A stretch of DNA of 35,473 nucleotides from NCBI GenBank assembly GCA_947628125.1, contig CANQYR010000001.1:1-35473 (forward strand), read 5' to 3'. This DNA comes from an uncultured Bacilli bacterium (GTDB taxonomy: Bacteria; Bacillota_I; Bacilli_A; RF39; UBA660). Shown piece after piece: positions 3,378 to 17,300 of this stretch. Positions within the stretch are counted from its first letter, which is position 1, and each line of letters starts with the position of its first letter. The notes under the pieces were generated by a model. The model saw nothing but the letters and a program-made list of their open reading frames with translations. It made no database searches and was not told the DNA's origin. The translations under genes and the position numbers were made by a program.

Positions 3378-3454
3378 GCACCCATAGCTCAATTGGATAG
3401 AGCGTTAGACTACGGATCTAAAGGTTAGGGGTTCGACTCCCTTTGGGTGCACCA
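3378..3454 (+). tRNA. tRNA-Arg (anticodon ACG), CCA encoded
   Basis: Folded by hand into a 77-nt cloverleaf: acceptor GCACCCA/TGGGTGC, D stem GCTC/GAGC, anticodon stem TTAGA/TCTAA with loop CTACGGA, T loop TTCGACT, 3' ACCA. Confidence 0.93.
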
Positions 3455-3501: not shown

Positions 3502-3578
3502 CGAGAAGTAGCACAATTTGGTAGTGCACTTGGTTTGGGACCAAGGGGTTGCAGGTTCAAATCCTGTCTTCTCGACCA
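3502..3578 (+). tRNA. tRNA-Pro (anticodon UGG), CCA encoded
   Basis: 77-nt cloverleaf: acceptor CGAGAAG/CTTCTCG, D stem GCAC/GTGC, anticodon stem CTTGG/CCAAG with loop TTTGGGA, T stem GCAGG/CCTGT with loop TTCAAAT, 3' ACCA. Confidence 0.92.
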
Positions 3579-4641: not shown

Positions 4642-6288
4642 CTACTCCTTTATTTTTTGCCTAAAATTCTTAATATCCTTCAAACTATTTATATACGGTA
4701 TTGCCTTTAACTTTAACATACACGCAAAATAAATAACCATTCCAACAAGCGCATAAACACCACAAATGAAAATACTATACATCCTACTACCACCACTAAT
4801 AGGTAATAAAATATTTAATAAACATAAACCTAAAACCATAACCCCACACGCTAAAACAGTTTTCAAAAGAACCTTAAAAGTCTTAAAATAATTAATACCA
4901 TAACACCTATTTAACTGCCAAAGCAAAAACAAAATCGTCGCACTTTGACTTATTAAACTTGCTACCGATGAACCATAATAAGCCTTTAACCCCAATGAAT
5001 TAAATAAATTTATCATCGGCACATTCAAACAAAGCTTAATAACAAAACCAATAAATAACGAACCAAAAGATAACTTAGTATTATTCATAATCTGAGCACT
5101 ATCAACCAAAACCGATTGAAAAGATAAAGTTATCCCTAAAAATATATAAATTCTAAACAAAGAAACCCCAATCTCATCATAACCATAAAAAGCATTCCAA
5201 ACCGGATAAGACAAAAAAGATAAACCAACCGTCATTGGAATCGTTAATATAACCAAAACCATCAAAGCACTATTGATCTTTTTCCCAACATCCTTAAAAT
5301 CCTTCTTCACAAAACTAGGCATAATATTAGGAATCAAACTAGCTGTAATACCAATACTAATTGAAATAACAATCATATTTAACTTCGAAGCCCAAGTTGA
5401 AATAACCCCAATTACATTCTCAGCATCTAAAACAGGATAACCTAAATTAGTCAAAGTCCTTACAATCGTAAACAAATCAACCACACTATATGAAGACTTA
5501 ACAATATCAATTAAAACAAAAGGCATCGCATAAAAAACAATCTTCTTAAACAAACTTTTATTACTTACCTTTTTCTCCTCTAAAGACTCTTCCTTTACAA
5601 TCTTAAACTTACTCTTATTCTTAGAAAGCTTATAACTAACATAAAAATACGCCACAAGTGCCCCAATACTAGCCCCTAAAACAGCCACCGAAACAGATGC
5701 AGTAAGTCCTAAATTAAAAACCTTCAAAGCTAAAAAACTACCCAAAACAACAATAATTACCCGCACTAACTGCTCAATAACCGCCGATAACTGACTAGGA
5801 AGCATATACTTATGACCCTGCAAATAACCCCTTTTAACACTTAAAATAGGAACCACAAGCAAAGCCGTTGAAATAAACCTTATGACCATCGCAATACTTT
5901 CCACACTATTGCCGTCTACCTCATCGCCCTTAATCATAAAAGCAATATCCTTAGCAAAAACAAACATCAAAATAAAGCCAATTAAACCTAATAAAACCAA
6001 ACACCTTGATCCCATCTTATAAGCTCGCTCTTTTAAATGCTGCATATCTAAAGCATTATACTCACTAATAAGCTTACTAATCGCCGTTGGAATACCAACC
6101 GTTGATAAACTTAAAAAAATAGAATATATTTCATAAGCATAACTATATAAAGCTCCGCCTTGATTGCCAATAATATCATAAAAAGGAATAACATATATTA
6201 AACCTAATATCTTACAAATTATAACACTTGCCGTTGCAATAAAAGCACCTTCTATAAAACTTGTCTTCTTCAATTTGCACCACCACAT
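4642..6288 (-). CDS. MOP-superfamily flippase (SpoVB/MurJ-like polysaccharide biosynthesis protein)
   Basis: 548 aa with about 14 TM helices. The N-terminus KKTSFIEGAFIATASVIICKILGLIYVIPF is typical of the SpoVB/MurJ family. The true start may be the TTG at 6273, preceded by GGTGGTG, rather than the ATG at 6288. Confidence 0.8.
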   Translation of the reverse strand: MWWCKLKKTSFIEGAFIATASVIICKILGLIYVIPFYDIIGNQGGALYSYAYEIYSIFLSLSTVGIPTAISKLISEYNALDMQHLKERAYKMGSRCLVLLGLIGFILMFVFAKDIAFMIKGDEVDGNSVESIAMVIRFISTALLVVPILSVKRGYLQGHKYMLPSQLSAVIEQLVRVIIVVLGSFLALKVFNLGLTASVSVAVLGASIGALVAYFYVSYKLSKNKSKFKIVKEESLEEKKVSNKSLFKKIVFYAMPFVLIDIVKSSYSVVDLFTIVRTLTNLGYPVLDAENVIGVISTWASKLNMIVISISIGITASLIPNIMPSFVKKDFKDVGKKINSALMVLVILTIPMTVGLSFLSYPVWNAFYGYDEIGVSLFRIYIFLGITLSFQSVLVDSAQIMNNTKLSFGSLFIGFVIKLCLNVPMINLFNSLGLKAYYGSSVASLISQSATILFLLWQLNRCYGINYFKTFKVLLKTVLACGVMVLGLCLLNILLPISGGSRMYSIFICGVYALVGMVIYFACMLKLKAIPYINSLKDIKNFRQKIKE

Positions 6289-6324
6289 CTATTATATAGA
6301 TTTTTAATAGCTTTGGCAAATATT

Positions 6325-6558
6325 TTATTTGCTACGTGTAAATTCTACTAAAACCACATCCTGTCCAATTTTTTTAATATCCTGATAAGTTATCTCTACC
6401 TCTTCCTTAAAATGAAAAAAATAAAACAACCTTTTAGGCTCCACAATAAAATGCAAAATCATACCATCATCACTTACCATTGCATCAACAATTCTCCCCA
6501 GCCTTTTACCATCAAAAACATTAACAATATCCTTTTTTTGTAACTCCGATAATGTCAT
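6325..6558 (-). CDS. YlmC/YmxH-family PRC-barrel sporulation protein
   Basis: 77 aa. LSELQKKDIVNVFDGKRLGRIVD...ITYQDIKKIGQDVVLVEF matches the YlmC/YmxH pattern. Confidence 0.8.
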   Translation of the reverse strand: MTLSELQKKDIVNVFDGKRLGRIVDAMVSDDGMILHFIVEPKRLFYFFHFKEEVEITYQDIKKIGQDVVLVEFTRSK

Positions 6559-6566
6559 ATTTCCCC

Positions 6567-7163
6567 CTAACTAACCTTATCCGTAATCAAAAAAACATCT
6601 TCAATATCATAACTGCTTTTCTTATGAATACCATAAATAAAAACCTCTTTATCCAAATTTTGAAAAAACACTTTCAACTTTTCCGAATAAACCGCCTCCA
6701 ATAAACAAATAAAATCATAACCATCATAAGAAGACTCACTATTTAAAACATAATTTAAAACCCCAAGCTTATAACTATGCTTTAAATTACCTAACCTTTT
6801 AATAACCTGATTATAAAAACTCATACAATAAATACGCTTACTACAATACTTTTCTAAAACCTTATTTAACTTATCACAATCAACATTCATTTCCTTTAAC
6901 TCTAATAAAAAAATCTTCTTACTATCTAAAGATAAAACCTCATCTAACCTTGGCAATAATAAATCACTATACTTACTTAAAGATATCACCTTACCCTTAT
7001 AAAAAGGTCCATGACAAATAACAAAAACCCCATCCAAACTTGTCCTAACATCACACTCAAAACCACCATACAAAGGATCTAAAATAGCCAAAGAAAAAGC
7101 CAAAAGCGAATTTTCTAAAGCCCCATTTTTCTTCAAACCCCTATGGGCTATTAAATTTTCCAT
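6567..7163 (-). CDS. Glycerophosphodiester phosphodiesterase family protein (short form)
   Basis: The N-terminus IAHRG..ENSLLAF..ECDVRTSLDGVFVICH shows GDPD motifs (HRG, E-x-D-v, DG-x-x-v-x-H). Confidence 0.8.
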   Translation of the reverse strand: MENLIAHRGLKKNGALENSLLAFSLAILDPLYGGFECDVRTSLDGVFVICHGPFYKGKVISLSKYSDLLLPRLDEVLSLDSKKIFLLELKEMNVDCDKLNKVLEKYCSKRIYCMSFYNQVIKRLGNLKHSYKLGVLNYVLNSESSYDGYDFICLLEAVYSEKLKVFFQNLDKEVFIYGIHKKSSYDIEDVFLITDKVS

Positions 7164-7171
7164 ACTACATA

Positions 7172-7618
7172 CTATGCTTTTTTCTTAAATCCTAAAACAA
7201 TAACCTTAAACAAAATAATAATTATAACTAAACATCCACTAATTACATAAATAGGTAAATTCTTAATCTCCTTTACATCAGAAACATCAGAAACATCAGA
7301 AACCTCATTAAAAACCACCGCATCATCTACCAAATTCTTATAAAAAGTATACTCCTCTTTCTTAACACTACCATCATAAACCTCATAAACAGCCTTTTCT
7401 AAATCCTCTTTTAAAACTACATCTAAACTACTATCAAACAAACTATAATTAGCCTTGATAGTATCTTCTCCCTCCACCAAATAAACCGTATAATAATTAA
7501 CCAAAGGATCAAAAGGAATAGATAACTTACCATTTAAAACCTCAAAATTTTTCATCGTATCTGCCTTAACACTTTCAAAAAACATAAAACAAAAGAAAAA
7601 AAAGAATAACTTTTTCAA
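7172..7618 (-). CDS. Secreted, C-terminally TM-anchored protein with a small beta-sandwich-like ectodomain and a VSD x3 repeat
   Basis: 148 aa with a signal peptide, FEVLNGKLSIPFDPLVNYYTVYL (resembles a cadherin-like beta-sandwich repeat), VSDVSDVSDV and a TM helix plus KKKA tail. Confidence 0.6.
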   Translation of the reverse strand: MKKLFFFFFCFMFFESVKADTMKNFEVLNGKLSIPFDPLVNYYTVYLVEGEDTIKANYSLFDSSLDVVLKEDLEKAVYEVYDGSVKKEEYTFYKNLVDDAVVFNEVSDVSDVSDVKEIKNLPIYVISGCLVIIIILFKVIVLGFKKKA

Positions 7619-7630
7619 ATCCCTAGCCTC

Positions 7631-8713
7631 CTATATCATCTTGAGTAAAATCTCATTCATAATATATAGTTTGTCACCAGGAATAAAAATATATTCTTTT
7701 TTTTGCTTCAATTCCTTACTTTTAAGAAGTGGCTTAAGCGGATAAACACTACCTAAATCCACATCATACTTTCTCTTAAACTCTTCTAAACTAATGCCCT
7801 TTGTCTTTCTAAGACCCAGCATAACTTCATTATCCATAATCTCTTGCTTTGGTAAAATTTTCTCTTCTAACCGAAAATTTTCCTTTAAATACGCTAAAAA
7901 ACTTCTCGTATTAGCATACCTTACCTTATCAACATACCCACAAGCACCAAGCCCAAAACCATAATATTCCTCATTATTCCAATAGCCTAAATTATGAATA
8001 CACTCCTTATTCTTCTTTGCAAAATTACTAACCTCATAATGATTAAAACCACTTCTAATTAAAGTATCAACAATCGTCTCATACATCAAATACTCATCAT
8101 CTTCATCAATTAAAGGAATATTATTAACCTTCAAAAGCGTATGATCTTCTAACTGCAGACTATAAGTACTAATATGATCAGGCTTTAACTTCAAAAACAA
8201 CTTCAAATCTTTTCTTAAATCATCTAAACTTTCATTATAAAAACCATAAATCAAATCCAAATTAATATTATTAAAACCTAAACTCCTTGCCAAAGCAATC
8301 TTTTCCTTTGCCTCAAGAAAAGTATGACTTCTTCCCATTAAATCTAATAAATGGGGCTGAAAACTTTGAATACCAATACTTAAACGTGTCACATTATAAA
8401 ACTTCAAAAGCTTCAAAAAATTCATATTTATATCCGCCAAATTACATTCAAAAGTAAACTCAATATTCTTCATCTTATTTAACTTCTTAGTCAAATTAAG
8501 CAAAAATTCTAACTCCTCTAAAGATAAAGATGAAGGACTTCCGCCACCTATATAAATTGATCTTATATCCTCACCCATATAATAATTATCAATCTCCAAA
8601 GCTAACTTTTTCAAATACATCTTTGCCCACTTAGAATCATAAAATAACTTACAAAAATCACAATATGAACAAATGCTTTTACAAAAGGGAACATGAATAT
8701 AAACACCTTTCAT
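7631..8713 (-). CDS. hemW: Radical SAM heme chaperone HemW (HemN-like, oxygen-independent coproporphyrinogen oxidase family)
   Basis: 360 aa. YIHVPFCKSICSYCDFC contains the CxxxCxxC cluster in the HemN/HemW context. Its position downstream of lepA matches Bacillus. Confidence 0.9.
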   Translation of the reverse strand: MKGVYIHVPFCKSICSYCDFCKLFYDSKWAKMYLKKLALEIDNYYMGEDIRSIYIGGGSPSSLSLEELEFLLNLTKKLNKMKNIEFTFECNLADINMNFLKLLKFYNVTRLSIGIQSFQPHLLDLMGRSHTFLEAKEKIALARSLGFNNINLDLIYGFYNESLDDLRKDLKLFLKLKPDHISTYSLQLEDHTLLKVNNIPLIDEDDEYLMYETIVDTLIRSGFNHYEVSNFAKKNKECIHNLGYWNNEEYYGFGLGACGYVDKVRYANTRSFLAYLKENFRLEEKILPKQEIMDNEVMLGLRKTKGISLEEFKRKYDVDLGSVYPLKPLLKSKELKQKKEYIFIPGDKLYIMNEILLKMI

Positions 8714-8735
8714 TTAAACGCCTCCCTAACAAAAC

Positions 8736-8744
8736 ATTATAGCA
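8736..8744 (-). promoter_or_regulatory. Extended -10 element TGcTATAAT upstream of hemW
   Basis: The minus strand reads TGC TATAAT (TATAAT at 8741..8736). The -35 region is weak. An RBS GGGAGG precedes the ATG at 8713. Confidence 0.45.
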
Positions 8745-8802
8745 AAAATTTTTAAACTTTAAAATACAGCTTGACAAATACTTGCCAAAACAAAAAAAAG
8801 GA

Positions 8803-10035
8803 TTAAATCCTCCTTCTTGTATAAATATAACCATTTTGACTATTAAATTTGCTAATCTTTTCATTTTCTTCCCCTAAATAATGATTACACAAACAAATTA
8901 AACTATCATTATTAAAAGGCATCTGATAATAAGGAATAGCATATTTCCTTCGAAAATTAGCCACCAAAAGTTTCTCTTTCTCATTCATACTTCCTATACT
9001 AATTTTCTTTTTAACAAGCGCCTGATAATCAATATCAAATATCTCCCGCAAAATATTACATGCCCTAGCCTTATTCTTAACCTTCGATCTTTTATAATCC
9101 GCATATAAAATCATTGCATAATTAAAATTACCACTTTCCCTAGACACACTTGTCATTAAATACTTAAGAGCATTTACATAAACAAACCCATGTTTTTTTG
9201 CCTCAAATAACATTCCATTTAAAACCGCATCTTCCGTATCTTTAATTAATAAAGAAAGCTCATAAATACTAATCTTAGTCGTAAAAAGAAAATGTAACCA
9301 AAAATTAGTCTTATCCTTCCATGCATAATTAACCTTTGTTGAATAAGAAATAGTAGTTTTATTATCTCTTTTATTCCATAAACTTAAAAACTCATCCTTT
9401 AAATACGCCAAATTATTATCAAGAACATGATACCTATCAGTACAAGTAGATATTCTTGAAATAGCTGCCGATGAAATATCATTTCGTAAAGCATAATCCT
9501 TAATAGTTAAATTTAAATGAAAACTATCTAAAAAATCCCTAACAAAATTCATATATTTTACCCGAAAATAATAATCCTGCAATAACTTTGACTCACAAAA
9601 TTCTTCAACATTAACATTAGGATATTTCTTCTTTAAAAAATCAACATGATCTAAAACAATATTAATATCAATTGGCCTATTAATAATTTTTTGGGCCAAT
9701 AAATACTTCCCTGGATCATAATATAAACAATACTTATTATTTAACTCCTTCAAAAGCTTTTTCAAATCATAAACCTTAACATTCTTCATAATTGCAATCT
9801 CTAATAAAGAATAACCCCTACTTAATAACATAACCACATCATCAAGTAAATCCTTATCAATAATTGTTCCCTTAGCTAAAGACTGCTCCATCAAAATACA
9901 ATTATACTTAACATTATCAGTAACCTTTAACTTTTCTAATACTTTCCTAACTGCAAAAATAGAAGTATTTAATAAATCTGAAATAACATTTACACTTTTA
10001 CCTTGCTCTGCTAAAGCAATTATTTCCTCATCCAT
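8803..10035 (-). CDS. Multi-HTH-repeat protein, paralog 3 (unknown family)
   Basis: 410 aa, collinear with the 422-aa neighbour. It has N-terminal sigma-r4/LuxR-like HTH modules and a shared C-terminal domain (..KKKISIGSMNEKEKLLVANFRRKYAIPYYQMPF..). The RBS GAAGAGG lies inside the 3' end of the upstream gene. Confidence 0.75.
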   Translation of the reverse strand: MDEEIIALAEQGKSVNVISDLLNTSIFAVRKVLEKLKVTDNVKYNCILMEQSLAKGTIIDKDLLDDVVMLLSRGYSLLEIAIMKNVKVYDLKKLLKELNNKYCLYYDPGKYLLAQKIINRPIDINIVLDHVDFLKKKYPNVNVEEFCESKLLQDYYFRVKYMNFVRDFLDSFHLNLTIKDYALRNDISSAAISRISTCTDRYHVLDNNLAYLKDEFLSLWNKRDNKTTISYSTKVNYAWKDKTNFWLHFLFTTKISIYELSLLIKDTEDAVLNGMLFEAKKHGFVYVNALKYLMTSVSRESGNFNYAMILYADYKRSKVKNKARACNILREIFDIDYQALVKKKISIGSMNEKEKLLVANFRRKYAIPYYQMPFNNDSLICLCNHYLGEENEKISKFNSQNGYIYTRRRI

Positions 10036-10039
10036 AACA

Positions 10040-11308
10040 TTACCTCTTCATTCTATAATATTTTCGTGACTCATTTATATTAAACTCAAACACATCTTCC
10101 AAACCATCGGCATAAAAAGCACAATAAGCCTGCAAATCTTTCCGATAAAATGGCATCCATCTACCCGGAATTGCATACTTAACCCAATGATGCGCAACAA
10201 TCTTTTTCTCATCATCACTCATCATCCTTATCGATTTTTTACTTTCCACTAACCTTTTATAATCAGTATCCATAACCTTATCATACATCTTCTTAGCAAG
10301 AGGTAAATTTGCCTTTCTAGCTAAAACATACTTCTTCCAAAATAACTGAGCCTTTTTCAAATTCTCCTCATCATACTCACTATAAGCAAGCGCATAATTT
10401 AAAGCATGCTCGTAAATTTTACTTTCCTTACCAACTTCCAAAAGCATCTTCCTTTTAAACGTCTCTTTATCCTCAATTTGTAAAAACATCATCAATTGCT
10501 CCAAAGATAAAGAAAACTCCCGCATAAAACTTACCCAAAACTTAACATTTTTCATAGCCTTTGTAATCTTTTCATCACATTTTTTACTATCAATGCCCTC
10601 AAAACTATGCCGATCGTTTATCCTTTTAAGCCTTGCCTCTTCAAATAAAGCCTTAATTTTTAAAGCCTCATCCCCATACATACACTTTAAAAACTGATGC
10701 TTATCCTTCATTAACAAAATATTAGTAATCGTCTCAAAACTAACATCACAATATAAAGCCAAATCCTTAGGCCCAATCAAAGGATTAGCTAAAAATAGTT
10801 CCACCATCTTACCATAACTAAGCCACTTCTTAAACATCCTTAATAAATTACAATTAAACTTTTCTTTATTAACAAAATTATATTCATCCTCTAATTTACT
10901 AAGCTTTTTCATTAAAACGCCATAATCTTGTTTATCATTTAAACTAATAGCCTTCTTTAACTTATCATATAAACACTTATCATCTTTTTCCAAATAACTT
11001 AAATGCTTATTAATATAACTTATCGAACTATCCGTTAAAACTGCCACTTCAAGCAAAGTATAACCATTTAAAACCTTATCAACTAACAATAACAAAAAAT
11101 CCTTATCATAAATAACCATATTATTAAGACCCATTGCAAAAATAATTTGATTGTACAAAAAAGGATTATAATGTTTACTTTTAGGCATATTCAAAAGCCT
11201 TAAATTATAATTAACCACACAAGCATCAACATCAAGTTCTAAAGCAATTTCATTTTTTTTCATCCCAAGTAAGCCTAGCCTTACAACCTCATCAAAATAA
11301 TAATCCAT
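10040..11308 (-). CDS. Multi-HTH-repeat protein, paralog 2 (unknown family)
   Basis: 422 aa. It has HTH-like modules (e.g. DKDFLLLLVDKVLNGYTLLEVAVLTDSSISYINKHLSYL) and the C-terminal segment ..ESKKSIRMMSDDEKKIVAHHWVKYAIPGRWMPF... The RBS GAGGGGG precedes the ATG. Confidence 0.75.
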   Translation of the reverse strand: MDYYFDEVVRLGLLGMKKNEIALELDVDACVVNYNLRLLNMPKSKHYNPFLYNQIIFAMGLNNMVIYDKDFLLLLVDKVLNGYTLLEVAVLTDSSISYINKHLSYLEKDDKCLYDKLKKAISLNDKQDYGVLMKKLSKLEDEYNFVNKEKFNCNLLRMFKKWLSYGKMVELFLANPLIGPKDLALYCDVSFETITNILLMKDKHQFLKCMYGDEALKIKALFEEARLKRINDRHSFEGIDSKKCDEKITKAMKNVKFWVSFMREFSLSLEQLMMFLQIEDKETFKRKMLLEVGKESKIYEHALNYALAYSEYDEENLKKAQLFWKKYVLARKANLPLAKKMYDKVMDTDYKRLVESKKSIRMMSDDEKKIVAHHWVKYAIPGRWMPFYRKDLQAYCAFYADGLEDVFEFNINESRKYYRMKR

Positions 11309-11336
11309 AAAAAAACCCCCTCGTTTTCTACGGCAT

Positions 11337-11365
11337 ATTATAAATTAATTAAAAATAAGTGTCAA
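11337..11365 (-). promoter_or_regulatory. Perfect consensus sigma-A promoter: TTGACA-17-TATAAT
   Basis: Indexed base by base: TTGACA at 11365..11360, the 17-nt spacer CTTATTTTTAATTAATT, and TATAAT at 11342..11337. It lies in the 64-nt gap upstream of the 422-aa paralog. Confidence 0.8.
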
Positions 11366-11372
11366 GAAAAAC

Positions 11373-12008
11373 TTATAACCGCTGCCGATGCGAGGCAAAA
11401 ACCTTATCTAGCTCATCTTGTAAATCTAAATCACCAATAGCCTTTACATTTTCATACAAAGTCGATACTGGAATATCATACTTCATACTTGTCTCAATCA
11501 AAGTCGCATTAAAATCAATAATATGATAAGCAAGGCGCCTTATATCTTCTAAAGACCTAATCCTTCCCCGAGTACCCATTTGTCCACCTAACTTAACAAA
11601 CATCTTGGCATATTTACTCCGAATTTTATCTAACTCATTACTAAGCTCTAAATCATAAAACAAATGCTTTTCATCCTTCAAAGCCCTTAAATACTTGTGA
11701 ACCAAACTCTCACTAACATCATTTCTTAAAGCTACATCTAAAACAGGATACCCCATCTTTAAATCACTAACAATACTATCTAACAAATCCTTATCAAAAA
11801 ACTCCCCAAACTTAGCCTCTCTAATAAACATAATTGCCTCAGCCTTATCTTTATCATAAAAAATACTAGTCTCATCACTTAACTTACTAATATACTCACT
11901 AACCGTTCTTTTAGAAACTAATTCCTTTTCCATAATCTGACCAACGCTTAAACCAGCTAATGCATCTTCTATAACCTTGTTAAACTTTTCCTTATCAAAT
12001 TTTCCCAT
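11373..12008 (-). CDS. Multi-HTH-repeat protein, paralog 1 (short form, three HTH-like modules)
   Basis: 211 aa. Its modules are LAGLSVGQIMEKELVSKRTVSEYISKL, LKMGYPVLDVALRNDVSESLVHKYLRAL and FNATLIETSMKYDIPVSTLYENVKAI. It starts 2 nt after the lepA stop. Confidence 0.75.
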   Translation of the reverse strand: MGKFDKEKFNKVIEDALAGLSVGQIMEKELVSKRTVSEYISKLSDETSIFYDKDKAEAIMFIREAKFGEFFDKDLLDSIVSDLKMGYPVLDVALRNDVSESLVHKYLRALKDEKHLFYDLELSNELDKIRSKYAKMFVKLGGQMGTRGRIRSLEDIRRLAYHIIDFNATLIETSMKYDIPVSTLYENVKAIGDLDLQDELDKVFASHRQRL

Positions 12009-13830: not shown

Positions 13831-13859
13831 ATTATACATAAAAAAAAGTTTTAAGTCAA
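13831..13859 (-). promoter_or_regulatory. Sigma-A type promoter for lepA: TTGACT-17-TATAAT
   Basis: TTGACT at 13859..13854, an indexed 17-nt spacer, and TATAAT at 13836..13831. The RBS GGTGAG precedes the ATG at 13813. Confidence 0.7.
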
Positions 13860-13862
13860 AAA

Positions 13863-15377
13863 CTATAAAACCATCTTATCATTATCTAAAGACTCATTAA
13901 CAACTAAATAAGAAGTAGAAAATAAAACACTCGCCATCGCACAAGAAGCTTCTAAAGCCTTCTTTAAAACCACATAATCATCTAAAATAAACGTCTCATT
14001 AAAGCCTTCCCAAACCTTTTTGTCATAATTATAGACATAATTAAAATTCCTACTCTTTGCCTCTTTCGCATAATAATCACCATCTAAACCTAAATTCTCC
14101 ATAATTTGCTTAAAAGGCCTAGTCAAAGCATAACAAAGTATTTCATAACCATCATTTTTTCCAAAGATGTTATCACTAATAGAAAGCAAACTAACACCCT
14201 CACCAAGTAATATACCCTCATGTGCAAAACTAATAGCTTCCAAAGCATCAATTGCCCGCATTAACTTTTCCTTTCTAATCGTCTTAGTTAAACCCCCAAT
14301 CAAAACTCTAGCTGAAAGACAATTAATATTGCTTATTCTCTCATCTAATAACTCCTTTTCATAAGAACTCAAAGCTTTTTTTTCTAAAGTCCTTATATAT
14401 CTTTTAACCTGCCCTTTATCTTTTTTAAACCTTATAATTGTCTCATCCAAATTACCCTCAATTGCTAAAGCCTGACCTAAAGAACTAAAACTACCATCAC
14501 CTGTAAGACTAGCATCTAGTAAAAAAGCCAAATCATTTAAAATTTCCTTTCGCTTCTTAGCATAATCAGTATTTAAAACCAAACAAATCTTTCCCCCATT
14601 TAAATTTATTTCTCTTACTTGATTAATAACTTCCTCACTAAAAAAATTAGCCATAATAACTAAACTAGCTTTGGACTTTAATACGCTATTTATCGCATCC
14701 GCACAAAAATTTAAATCATCAACATCTCTATCTAAAAGCAAAACATAAGGGTTTAAAAACTCATAACTATTACTAGTTCCAAGTAAAAAACTAGAACAAA
14801 GACCACAAGGCACTACATAACCATTTATAAAACTTACACTACACTTTTCCTCACCTTCTAAAATCTTAATTCCCCCTTTATTTAAAACCTTAGTATAAGC
14901 CTTAAAAATACACCTACCTATTTCCTCATCATTAGCAGCATTAATAGCAATTTTTAACAAATCTTTTTTTAAAGGCTTAACAAGAAGAGTTTTTAATCTA
15001 TCCAAAACCAAAGATAAAGCCTCATTAAGTTCATTCTTTAAAACCACTCCATTTTTACCACTTTTAATTAAAGAAATACCCTTAACCATCAAAGCCTTAA
15101 ACAAAACAAGCGTTGTTGTCGTTCCATCACCTACCTCCAAATCAACCTTCAAACTTGCTTCCTTACATAAACTTAAAATCGAATTAATGACCTCATCACA
15201 ACTATTAATACACTTAGCAATACTAACACCATCATTAGTCACAAAAGGACTTGCAAAATCACTTATAATTACATCCTTTCCCATTGGTCCTAAAGTAGAA
15301 CTAACCGGATCACACAAAAGCAAAACCGCATCTAAAATATTATCTAGTAATGCATCACCACCAACAACTTTTTTCAT
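13863..15377 (-). CDS. Divergent Cpn60/GroEL-family chaperonin paralog (no GroES partner, no GGM tail)
   Basis: 504 aa, collinear with GroEL. Shared segments are TLGPMGKDV, TNDGVSIAK, EVGDGTTT, ..ERISNINCLSARVLIGGLTKTIRKEKLMRAIDALEAISFAHEGILLGEGVS.. and FILDD..AL. The GroEL GGG motif reads GEG here. Its ATG overlaps the upstream stop (ATGA at 15374..15377). Confidence 0.8.
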   Translation of the reverse strand: MKKVVGGDALLDNILDAVLLLCDPVSSTLGPMGKDVIISDFASPFVTNDGVSIAKCINSCDEVINSILSLCKEASLKVDLEVGDGTTTTLVLFKALMVKGISLIKSGKNGVVLKNELNEALSLVLDRLKTLLVKPLKKDLLKIAINAANDEEIGRCIFKAYTKVLNKGGIKILEGEEKCSVSFINGYVVPCGLCSSFLLGTSNSYEFLNPYVLLLDRDVDDLNFCADAINSVLKSKASLVIMANFFSEEVINQVREINLNGGKICLVLNTDYAKKRKEILNDLAFLLDASLTGDGSFSSLGQALAIEGNLDETIIRFKKDKGQVKRYIRTLEKKALSSYEKELLDERISNINCLSARVLIGGLTKTIRKEKLMRAIDALEAISFAHEGILLGEGVSLLSISDNIFGKNDGYEILCYALTRPFKQIMENLGLDGDYYAKEAKSRNFNYVYNYDKKVWEGFNETFILDDYVVLKKALEASCAMASVLFSTSYLVVNESLDNDKMVL

Positions 15378-16093
15378 TTACAATCACCCATTTCTATAAT
15401 ATTTTTCCAATACTTCTTTGGCATAAAACGCATCTGACATATTGCATTTTCTCTTTCCTTAATACTAATCGTCTTAAAAAATACCTTCCATAAATCACTA
15501 ACATCTTTTTCAACAGCAGAAAAAGTCTTATTAATATCATCTAAAGAACAATTAATAAAGTAAGAACGCCCTTCATAATATATCAAAGCTAAATGCCTTA
15601 ATTCATCATAAATTATCCAATTTTCCTTTTTAAAACGCCTTTCAAAATGACTAGCTAAATAATATATTACATTATTACTAGGAGCAAAAGTGGCAAACAA
15701 AAAACCACTTTCTAACTGTCTAAACCTTAAAAAACCCTTCATCTTATGTGCTTCATGTAAAACATTTTTCCTAAGCTTTAAAGCTAAATTTACACAATTT
15801 AAATATCGAAAATTTAAAACCTTAATTCCATACTTACGATAATTTAATAACAAATAATAAATTACCAACTCCTTGCCTTTATAATCCGCTAAAAAAATGC
15901 TAAAACAAAGATTCTTTATCCTCGAATCTAAACAAACATTTCCCATCCTAACCTTATAAGGCTTAGAAAATAAATCCCTAACATAATCTTTTTCTACAAC
16001 AATATCATATGGCTTAATGCTCTTTGTAATTAACACATCAACTGTCCTTAATAAATGTTTAAAAGAACCATCATACAAATACACATTATTCAT
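15374..16093 (-). CDS. DUF4130 / TIGR03915-type probable DNA metabolism protein (partner of the radical SAM protein)
   Basis: 239 aa. The N-terminus MNNVYLYDGSFKHLLRTVDVL matches the pattern I recall for this family. It overlaps the upstream radical SAM gene by 8 nt. There is no fused uracil-DNA glycosylase domain. Confidence 0.7.
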   Translation of the reverse strand: MNNVYLYDGSFKHLLRTVDVLITKSIKPYDIVVEKDYVRDLFSKPYKVRMGNVCLDSRIKNLCFSIFLADYKGKELVIYYLLLNYRKYGIKVLNFRYLNCVNLALKLRKNVLHEAHKMKGFLRFRQLESGFLFATFAPSNNVIYYLASHFERRFKKENWIIYDELRHLALIYYEGRSYFINCSLDDINKTFSAVEKDVSDLWKVFFKTISIKERENAICQMRFMPKKYWKNIIEMGDCK

Positions 16094-17300
16094 TGCAAAA
16101 CAAACTTAACTGCTGAAAACTATCAGCCTTATCCTTATCCTCTAAAATTAAATTAGCCATAATAAAGTTTTTATTAAAATAACTATGATCTAAAAAATAC
16201 TTACCATCACATAAAATAAAATACTTGGCTCTTTTAATAACCACCCCAATCTTCTTTAAATCCTCCATACCAAGCCGATAATAAAGCCTCATCTTAACAA
16301 TTCTTTTGGCGCTTTTAACACCCACACCAGGAATCCGTAATAAATCATCATAACTAGCCTTATTAATTTCCATTGGAAAAATATCCAAATGATTAATCGC
16401 CCAGTTAGCCTTAGGATCAAGTAAAACATTAAAATTAGGCGTCTTTACACTAAGCAAATCATCAACCTTATAATGATAATATCTAAGCAAAAAATCAGCT
16501 TGATAAAGCCTATGTTCTCTTTTTAAAGGAACAAATTTCAAACTAGGCAGTAAAGCATCTTTATTAACACCAACATAAGCCGAATAAAAAACTCTTTTCA
16601 AATTAAACTTCTTATATAAAGATTCACTTTGCTTCATAATCTGATAATCACTATCCATACTAGCCCCAATAATAACCTGCGTACTTTGCCCAGAAGGTGC
16701 AAAAAAAGGACTAACATTTTCTTTAATACTACCCATCACATTTAAAATATTTTCCTTAGACTTATCAGGCGCTAAAAGCTTAAGACTATTACTACTAGGC
16801 ATCTCCACATTACAACTTAACCGGTCAACTAATAAACCCAACTTCTTAATTAAATAAGAACTACTACCTAAAATAGCCTTACAATGAATATAACCGTTAA
16901 AATGATAATCATGCCGAAGCATCGATATAACCTCAATTAACTTTTCCATCGTATAATCAGGATCCTTAATAATTCCTGAACTTAAAAACAATCCCTCGAT
17001 GTAGTTGCGGCGATAAAAATTAAGTGTAATCTCACATATTTCTTTAGCACTAAACATCGATCTTTTAACATCATTGCTCCGCCTATTCGGGCAATACTTA
17101 CAATCATAAATACAACTATTAGTTAACAATATTTTTAAAAGCGAAATACACCTACCATCTGCTGAAAAAGAATGACATATCCCACTTCTATAAGCATTAC
17201 CAATACCATTAGTATTCTTTCTTTGACTACCCGAAGAAGAACAAGAAGCATCATACTTAGCCGCATCCGCTAAAATAGCAAGCTTTTCCTTTATATTCAT
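16086..17300 (-). CDS. Putative DNA modification/repair radical SAM protein (TIGR03916-type) with a C-terminal helix-hairpin-helix
   Basis: 404 aa. It has an N-terminal Cys-rich segment (YDASCSSSGS..GICHSFSADGRCISLLK), the radical SAM cluster CIYDCKYC (CxxxCxxC) and a C-terminal HhH (LLRIPGVGVKSAKRIV). Confidence 0.85.
   Translation of the reverse strand: MNIKEKLAILADAAKYDASCSSSGSQRKNTNGIGNAYRSGICHSFSADGRCISLLKILLTNSCIYDCKYCPNRRSNDVKRSMFSAKEICEITLNFYRRNYIEGLFLSSGIIKDPDYTMEKLIEVISMLRHDYHFNGYIHCKAILGSSSYLIKKLGLLVDRLSCNVEMPSSNSLKLLAPDKSKENILNVMGSIKENVSPFFAPSGQSTQVIIGASMDSDYQIMKQSESLYKKFNLKRVFYSAYVGVNKDALLPSLKFVPLKREHRLYQADFLLRYYHYKVDDLLSVKTPNFNVLLDPKANWAINHLDIFPMEINKASYDDLLRIPGVGVKSAKRIVKMRLYYRLGMEDLKKIGVVIKRAKYFILCDGKYFLDHSYFNKNFIMANLILEDKDKADSFQQLSLFCNE

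Follow-up and report, generated by a model that had tools for sequence, protein, structure and literature searches.

What kind of protein has settled between lepA and hemW in certain gut Bacilli, and what might it do there? The question is raised by a stretch of 35,473 nucleotides (nt) from an uncultured Bacilli bacterium (GenBank assembly GCA_947628125.1, contig CANQYR010000001.1, positions 1 to 35,473), which is analysed here at its full length as the window. An original prediction, made from its letters alone, had described three consecutive minus-strand open reading frames (ORFs) of 211, 422 and 410 amino acids (aa) as paralogous proteins with several helix-turn-helix (HTH) modules and of no characterised family. 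The coordinates of the three ORFs, hereafter A211, B422 and C410, were confirmed between lepA and hemW (Table 1), and all the peptide strings quoted in the prediction are present in the proteins. We find that they belong to an unnamed and apparently new family, predicted to be all-helical, which is restricted to one clade and evolves fast, and whose long forms we tentatively read as DNA-binding regulators.

A new protein family

The paralogy of the three proteins is confirmed far above chance by sequence comparison. B422 and C410 align over their full length with 27% identity (BLASTP, E=1e-24), and the C-terminal domain that the two long copies have in common is confirmed; A211 aligns through its N-terminal ~110 aa with both C410 (E=3e-8) and B422 (E=2e-6). 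A hidden Markov model (HMM) of the family scores B422 at E=4.5e-112, C410 at 1.4e-99 and A211 at 3.9e-24, the last through modules 1 and 2 only; none of the remaining ORFs of the window matches it.

Relatives were sought by an exhaustive hmmsearch with a B422+C410 profile against 1.84 billion cluster representatives (clusters at 50% identity), which returned 64 at E<=1e-3 and 46 at E<=1e-10. Most of them are 405-468 aa long and match the profile end to end, and the long form overall spans 405-470 aa. The original account is refined in that the insertion is not private to this genome: it represents a syntenic family of 64 clusters in one clade. B422 and C410 both match the profile over their full length and lie in the lepA-hemW slot, as members of this multi-HTH family. 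Word-indexed searches of 5.8 billion proteins, started from B422, from B422+C410 or from an alignment of 35 members, recovered only the window's own proteins and two others, because its members differ too much from one another for 5-mer seeds to work; the relatives came to light only through the exhaustive HMM search.

The 35-member alignment (A2) defines the family and is the basis of all counts out of 35 given below. It contains no conserved run of 7-10 columns. Its motifs are G-x-S-x-x-E-I-A in module 1, I-D-K-D-L-L ... G-[FY]-T-x-x-E-I-A in module 2, then F-W-x-x-x-x-L-T-F-R-L-S, N-D-x-x-Y and L-T-E-E-E-x-x-x-I-x-x-Y-R-L-K-Y-A-L-P, and a Lys/Arg-rich C-terminus. Conservation is strongest in the C-terminal domain, where the K-Y of the KYA[LI]P motif is invariant and W258, D347 and P386 also stand out.

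No family in Pfam, NCBIfam, PHROGs or PADLOC corresponds to these proteins: the only matches there are sub-threshold and to generic HTH families, through the first module, and PADLOC gave no anti-phage defence family. PDB sequences and Foldseek yielded no characterised family either. In the sources searched we found neither a name nor a function for any family member or for the lepA-hemW insertion, and no literature linking lepA, hemW and helix-turn-helix. The claim of novelty thus stands, with no confident match to a characterised family and no annotation of the insertion anywhere found.

Domain organisation and predicted structure

The long form consists, in order, of two duplicated HTH modules, a degenerate third module, a long connecting helix and a C-terminal domain of 180 residues. 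AlphaFold2 (AF2), given the family alignment, modelled full-length B422 as all helical, with 24 helices (predicted local distance difference test [pLDDT] 91; predicted template modelling score [pTM] 0.62). Modules 1 (residues 1-64) and 2 (65-127) match each other with an hhalign probability of 97.8% (E=1e-12); both are tri-helical, and each continues into a packing helix with the motif Y-[ND]-P-x-x-[LY]Y. Residues 128-205 form a more distant module, with probabilities of 45-53% against the long-form modules and 87-88% against those of the short form. The long form thus appears to contain a third, degenerate HTH module, a refinement of the original account.

The N-terminal modules had been likened to sigma-70 region 4 and to LuxR-type HTHs, and profile comparisons agree. 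A profile search of PDB sequences matched LuxR-type DNA-binding domains (E~3e-4), namely those of LiaR (2.6e-4), VpsT, VraR, DesR and GerE (to 5e-3), over profile positions 3-40. Across the 35 members, Pfam gave Sigma70_r4_2 (best 5.4e-8) and GerE (best 1.3e-6), each in 7 at E<=0.01, as well as HTH_23 and HTH_28, all of these in 7-8 members each; residues 12-46 of A211 show weak Pfam matches to HTH_11, HTH_24 and HTH_23. The conserved positions are hydrophobic residues of the helix cores, and the core of the module 1 recognition helix is invariant. On the outside of that helix, positions 33, 34 and 37 are exposed and hypervariable, 77-80% polar, 23-46% Lys/Arg and rarely acidic. The proteins are on average basic (mean isoelectric point 8.4), and in most of them the C-terminus is a tail rich in Lys and Arg.

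When modelled alone with AF2, the C-terminal 180 residues form a compact domain of 11 helices (pLDDT 94.6, pTM 0.87). Foldseek found no neighbour for this domain in the PDB (best E=3.4, probability 0.06), a sequence-profile search returned nothing better than E=0.3, and Foldseek with the whole model gave nothing significant in the PDB or BFVD (best viral match E=2.9e-3, template modelling score 0.11). Foldseek is weak for all-helical folds, and for this reason we regard a new fold as a possibility, not as a result.

The short form differs in its third part. A211 consists of modules 1 and 2, with hhalign probabilities of 98-99% between short-form modules and modules 1 and 2 of the long form, followed by a different third HTH with the motif '...IP-x-ST-[LI]-Y-[DE]-N-[VI]...'. 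Its orthologues P0048 and P0056, from two other metagenomes, are also exactly 211 aa long, 40% identical, and each lies directly after lepA. A211 is a member of a conserved short subfamily and not a truncated or broken long copy. Its third HTH was also considered as a SpoIIID domain (PF12116), for which neither A211 nor P0048 nor P0056 gives a match at E<=10; homology with a SpoIIID-domain protein found on contig L101 (see below) is unsupported (hhalign probability 1.3%).

Conserved position and recurrent amplification

Related genomes place the family at the same address. Every carrier contig that we read has at least one copy directly after lepA and/or adjoining hemW (gene orders in Table 1). 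Wherever the contig includes the upstream side, the gene directly preceding the family gene or block is lepA. In six carrier contig groups a family gene adjoins hemW, and in L083, L086 and L101 its stop and start codons overlap with those of both neighbours. In Bacillaceae, Listeria and Paenibacillus the gap between lepA and hemW is ~20-460 nt, and the family HMM finds no member at their lepA loci. This agrees with the predicted insertion into an otherwise adjacent gene pair, and the gene therefore entered the junction in an ancestor of the clade. A tblastn search of A211, B422 and C410 against 80 lepA loci of genome representatives gave no match, and the family HMM detected at such loci only the C-terminal half of a member in Candidatus Onthocola stercoravium (L001). 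There, an ORF of 194 aa corresponds to HMM positions 252-422 (E=1.8e-15), and its ends overlap the stop codon of lepA on one side and the start codon of hemW on the other; it is the closest named relative.

A single copy is usual. Expansion to two or three copies has taken place several times, independently, and the window is one such case (short, long, long). In the L103 triplet (4647-9317), the 328-aa member lacks module 1 and the 438-aa member follows hemW, so that family copies can occupy either side of hemW.

Other proteins share the slot. L101 (7510-8004) and L102 (3721-4215) each encode a 164-aa protein with a tandem pair of SpoIIID domains (Pfam 63 bits, cutoff 27), which stands, translationally coupled to its neighbours, between lepA and the long member, at the position that the 211-aa short form holds in the window. 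On L090 (2858-3145; L090-L091), a 95-aa ORF without a family match stands between the second long copy and hemW.

The junction itself appears to be an insertion hotspot. Unrelated, lineage-specific insertions are present in other Bacillota, at L002 5884-8164, L020 11804-13674 and L035 11037-12977; the first, the CAG:956 junction, holds a surface Ig-like polysaccharide deacetylase. The ~500-aa gap proteins of L020 and L035, from metagenome-assembled genomes resembling Erysipelotrichaceae, were considered as relatives and do not match the family HMM. The L020 protein shows a weak, sub-cutoff match to the Fic domain, and both are followed by a small membrane protein.

Rapid divergence

We observed substantial differences in protein identity between the family and its neighbours. 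Between L083 and L086, LepA is 86% identical, HemW 75%, the poorly conserved membrane protein downstream 55% and the family protein 30%. Over all pairs, identity ranges from 22 to 30% for the family protein, against 73-86% for LepA. B422 and C410 (26-29%, according to the alignment) are about as distant from each other as from orthologues elsewhere (28-29%), and their duplication is therefore either old or was followed by fast divergence. The family genes of L083 and L098-L100 differ by one synonymous and three non-synonymous changes, which, between such near-identical strains, are too few for a ratio of non-synonymous to synonymous rates (dN/dS).

The same pair of contigs differs in another way. 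Their hemW genes (L083 7122-8204, L098 11332-12414) carry ~12.5 synonymous differences, with a synonymous divergence (dS) of 0.067, and the other six genes (gpr, spoIIP, the 110-aa ORF, lepA, the family gene and the membrane protein gene) carry 0-2 each, which suggests a short recombination tract confined to hemW.

Possible functions of the family

We suggest, with a probability of roughly 45%, that the long forms are lineage-specific DNA-binding regulators or nucleoid-associated proteins, equipped with a new domain that binds a partner or a signal. This reading draws on three modules resembling LuxR and sigma region 4, on a basic protein with a basic tail, and on fast-changing polar surfaces borne by a fixed scaffold, and also on the HTH-only paralogues and, in one lineage, the SpoIIID-domain transcription factor that are coupled at the same slot. 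The long forms would place several HTH heads along DNA, with module 1 as the most plausible reading head and a specificity particular to each lineage, and the C-terminal domain would provide either assembly through self-binding or the binding of a partner or signal. A211 would be made together with LepA and might act as an HTH-only partner or modulator, and B422 and C410 would probably be made from a strong vegetative-type promoter of their own.

Several observations weigh on the other side. A211, B422 and C410 all score below the Pfam gathering score for every HTH family, the base-reading residues of LuxR-type domains are not conserved in the family, and module 2 is acidic (mean net charge -2.4), its third helix beginning with conserved Glu/Asp. 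We also found no conserved candidate operator. Onthocola keeps the C-terminal half alone at the slot, so the core function may not need the HTH modules, and coupling as tight as that with lepA and hemW is unusual for a regulator.

Much of this would suit a non-DNA-binding helical adaptor, whose C-terminal domain works with a partner, possibly LepA, HemW or the ribosome, and whose HTH-like modules are structural or protein-binding repeats. We consider such an adaptor unlikely, though it is the main alternative and accounts for the Onthocola half-protein, for the stop/start overlaps with lepA and hemW on several contigs, for the acidic module 2 and the variable base-reading residues, and for the location of the strongest conservation in the C-terminal domain; moreover, the best PDB sequence match overall is a designed HTH-like repeat protein (8vd6). 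Yet modules 1-3 resemble families known for binding DNA, the residues exposed on the recognition helix of module 1 are polar or basic and not hydrophobic, the proteins are basic with Lys/Arg tails, and HTH-only paralogues and a SpoIIID-domain protein occur at the same slot. Nor is the coupling obligatory, since one L103 copy follows hemW and B422 and C410 apparently have their own promoter.

A bolder version of the regulator reading gives the C-terminal domain the leading part: as a new fold and the functional core, it would sense a state linked to lepA or hemW (haem through a Cys-Pro motif, or translation stress through EF4) and relay it to DNA through hypervariable HTH heads. We judge this rather improbable. 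If it were true, this clade of gut spore-formers would carry, inside a housekeeping operon, a previously unknown regulatory system that diversifies through tandem duplication.

The very fast divergence and recurrent tandem duplication could also recall a domesticated regulator of a mobile element or prophage (with an HTH of the transposase, terminase or repressor type) that landed between lepA and hemW and is still duplicating, at a junction that takes other insertions in other Bacillota. Weak matches to transposase N-terminal HTHs (IS630 2.2e-3, IS1 3.3e-5, IS21 1.6e-3), to terminase small subunits and to the HTH regions of DNA invertases point the same way. We hold this origin to be improbable, given that tblastn was negative in 50,697 phage and 72,556 plasmid records, that PHROG and PADLOC matches are to generic HTHs only, that no catalytic transposase or integrase domain is present, and that base composition and GC skew are as in the flanks. 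Indeed, every located copy lies in a lepA-hemW block with LepA 73-86% identical, which implies long vertical inheritance.

It is still less probable that the family is a sigma-like or RNA-polymerase-binding factor built of modules like sigma region 4: to set against Sigma70_r4_2 in 7 of the 35 members (best 5.4e-8), Sigma70_ECF in one, and a PDB profile match to FliA (1rp3, E=4.2e-3, profile positions 165-298), there is no match to region 2 or region 3 in the window proteins or among the 25 most often matched of the 32 Pfam families that the 35 members hit, the FliA match is lost with the middle-region profile alone, and Foldseek places sigma factors at E>7 (probability <=0.04). We likewise give little credence to a regulator linked to HemW, the haem chaperone, that would sense haem through a Cys-Pro (haem regulatory) motif at the start of the last helix, since for all the conserved and often codon-overlapping adjacency of hemW and the Cys in 22 of the 35 members at the column of B422 C396 (Cys-Pro in 13), this Cys is not invariant (Cys-Ala in B422, Cys-Asn in C410), no His or Met is conserved, the motif lies within a confidently folded helix and not in a flexible segment, and the globin-like structures that Foldseek paired with the C-terminal domain are at noise level (E>3, probability <=0.04).

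Comparison with known systems

The DNA-binding regulator that we favour would have its nearest functional model in the LuxR/GerE group (GerE, LiaR, NarL; PF00196, PF08281), with which module 1 and, through their internal homology, modules 2 and 3 have in common the helix pattern G-x-[ST]-x-x-E-I-A ... V-x-x-x-I-x-x-L. Foldseek aligns ~60 residues to QscR, LiaR, VpsT and NarL with probabilities of 0.7-0.9, but at E>3, and A211, B422 and C410 do not match GerE (PF00196) even at E<=1. A LuxR-type domain is normally single and C-terminal, behind a receiver or ligand domain, whereas here the modules are N-terminal, in tandem and three per protein, each with an extra helix bearing an aromatic motif, and are joined to an unrelated 180-residue domain. 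The Lys, Thr and His that contact bases in LuxR-type proteins are replaced by variable residues in the family.

Several imperfect HTH repeats per chain are also found in Cbp1, a CRISPR DNA repeat-binding protein of Sulfolobales with three of them (PMC3597662, PMC10883916). Modules 1-2 match the Cbp1 structure 2lvs (105 aa) over profile positions 11-107 (E=1.3e-3; Foldseek rank 11). Against the Cbp1 model itself (NF040595, HTH_Cbp1), C410 scores 19.4 bits and family protein P0009 18.0 bits, where the cutoff is 140. Cbp1 is small, archaeal and without the C-terminal domain, and the family genes have no CRISPR or repeat array nearby; the resemblance is architectural only and not one of membership.

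With SpoIIID, a mother-cell sporulation transcription factor, the link is positional only, through the slot in L101/L102. RNPP regulators (Rgg, PlcR, NprR, Rap) similarly have an N-terminal HTH, a large helical domain, quick divergence and repeated expansion of paralogues. They differ in that the family HTH is LuxR-like, not XRE-like, in that Foldseek returned no neighbours with tetratricopeptide repeats or of the RNPP group, in that no adjacent gene for a pheromone peptide was recognised, and in that the locus is fixed in a housekeeping operon. The family probably works like a LuxR/GerE-type HTH protein in an architecture like that of Cbp1; it does not qualify as a member of either, nor of sigma-70, SpoIIID or RNPP, and is best treated as a new family of putative multi-HTH regulators. 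What is unusual in it is the unrelated C-terminal domain, the constant location inside a housekeeping operon, and the combination of extreme divergence and repeated amplification.

Many HTH proteins are uncharacterised, and our finding resolves no long-standing question. If the long forms are DNA-binding regulators, they would nevertheless make up an unnamed regulator family, absent from every curated library tested and with a confidently predicted domain that has no relatives. One fixed genomic address gives access to orthologues and paralogues across the clade, which makes the family well placed for study. Strict position, 22-30% identity and repeated amplification together point to a fast co-evolving interaction, be it with DNA targets, partners or signals, in uncultured gut spore-formers of which little is known. 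Our finding also makes the junction of lepA and hemW stand out as a place where lineage-specific HTH proteins have repeatedly landed in Bacillota.

Organisation of the locus and its host

Two nt separate the TAA stop of lepA (12013-12011) from the ATG of A211, in agreement with the original prediction, and a GGAG-rich ribosome-binding site lies within the 3' end of lepA; A211 is predicted to be translationally coupled to lepA. The A211-B422 spacer of 64 nt carries the consensus promoter that had been reported before the other two copies, followed by a GAGGGGG ribosome-binding site. This is probably the promoter of B422 and C410, of a strong vegetative type; from the stop of B422 to the start of C410 there are 4 nt. 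The spacer between C410 and hemW, with a second promoter-like site, measures 89 nt, and a further such site precedes lepA at 13859..13831 (11/12 positions).

Table 1. Features of the lepA-hemW region in the window, and gene orders on other carrier contigs (short and long, forms of the family protein)
Feature	Position	Strand	Description
lepA (EF4), 600 aa	12011..13813	minus	upstream anchor of the slot; ORF call
A211, short family member, 211 aa	11373..12008	minus	without C-terminal domain; ORF, BLASTP, module comparison
A211 HTH module 1	11805-12008
A211 HTH module 2	11634-11804
A211 different third HTH	~11376-11576
Sigma-70-type promoter consensus TTGACA-17-TATAAT	11337..11365	minus	12/12 positions; in A211-B422 spacer; pattern match only
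B422, long family member, 422 aa	10040..11308	minus	ORF, BLASTP, AF2
B422 module 1	11117-11308
B422 module 2	10928-11116
B422 degenerate module 3	10694-10927
B422 long linker helix	10580-10693
B422 C-terminal helical domain	10043-10579
C410, second long member, 410 aa	8803..10035	minus	ORF, BLASTP, family HMM
C410 module 1	9865-10035
C410 module 2	9864 to ~9682
C410 C-terminal domain	8806-9342
Promoter-like site, extended -10 (TGCTATAAT)	8736..8763	minus	10/12 positions, TG before -10; pattern match only
hemW, 360 aa	7631..8713	minus	downstream anchor; Pfam Radical_SAM E=9.4e-24, HemN_C E=9.1e-7
Signal-peptide/transmembrane protein, 148 aa	7172..7618	minus	no family match; not a family member
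L081			lepA - long - hemW
L082			lepA - long - second long copy
L083/L084, L098-L100			gpr - spoIIP - 110 aa - lepA - long - hemW - membrane protein; codons overlap
L085			lepA - long - hemW
L086-L089			lepA - long - hemW
L090			long - long - 95 aa - hemW - membrane protein - GDPD
L096			spoIIP - 110 aa - lepA - short - long - hemW - membrane protein - GDPD - mutS
L097			lepA - short - long
L101/L102			lepA - 164-aa tandem SpoIIID-domain protein - long - hemW - membrane protein - GDPD
L103			gpr - spoIIP - 109 aa - lepA - 328-aa member - 433-aa member - hemW - 438-aa member - membrane protein - GDPD

The 148-aa protein, which has a signal peptide and, at its C-terminal end, a transmembrane helix, is a marker of the clade and block. 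Wherever a carrier contig continues beyond hemW, an equivalent follows the block, usually with a short GDPD-like gene behind it; the equivalents of L083, L086, L090 and L096 are 35-55% identical, and those of L101 and L103 are known by position and length only. Further downstream in the window are a PRC-barrel protein and a 548-aa membrane protein of the Polysacc_synt/MurJ type.

The window has a G+C content of 30% and a very strong, uniform GC skew of about -0.35 to -0.66 (1-kb windows), with nearly all large ORFs on the minus strand; two tRNA genes (3378-3451 and 3502-3575) lie on the plus strand, opposite to their surroundings. Its LepA is at most 70% identical to those of the genome representatives returned, the nearest being those of two uncultured gut Bacilli, Candidatus Onthocola stercoravium and 'Mycoplasma sp. 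CAG:956'. The germination protease gene gpr, spoIIP and a small 112-aa ORF in the position of yqxA lie upstream of lepA, as in the gene order of Bacillus subtilis, and sporulation genes likewise stand beside the block on L083, L096, L098 and L103. With gpr and spoIIP in the window, the organism carries sporulation genes, and its clade can be described, from these genes and its relatives, as uncultured low-G+C, presumably spore-forming gut Bacilli.

Three genes (13863-17300, minus strand) separate the yqxA-position ORF from lepA in the window: a radical-SAM/helix-hairpin-helix protein (TIGR03916, 592 bits), its partner (TIGR03915/DUF4130) and a 504-aa GroEL-like chaperonin. On L083, L096, L098 and L103, spoIIP, the ~110-aa ORF and lepA are contiguous, so that this 3.4-kb segment looks like an insertion specific to the lineage of the window. 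The chaperonin is very divergent (239 bits against NCBIfam cutoffs of 352-582) and has no groES upstream; a search of the window for the CIRCE/HrcA operator found none. No tandem DNA repeats or CRISPR-like arrays were found near the genes. On L083, a group II intron reverse transcriptase (RVT_1 and GIIM; 9266-10573) lies downstream of the block and is absent from the collinear contigs L098-L100.

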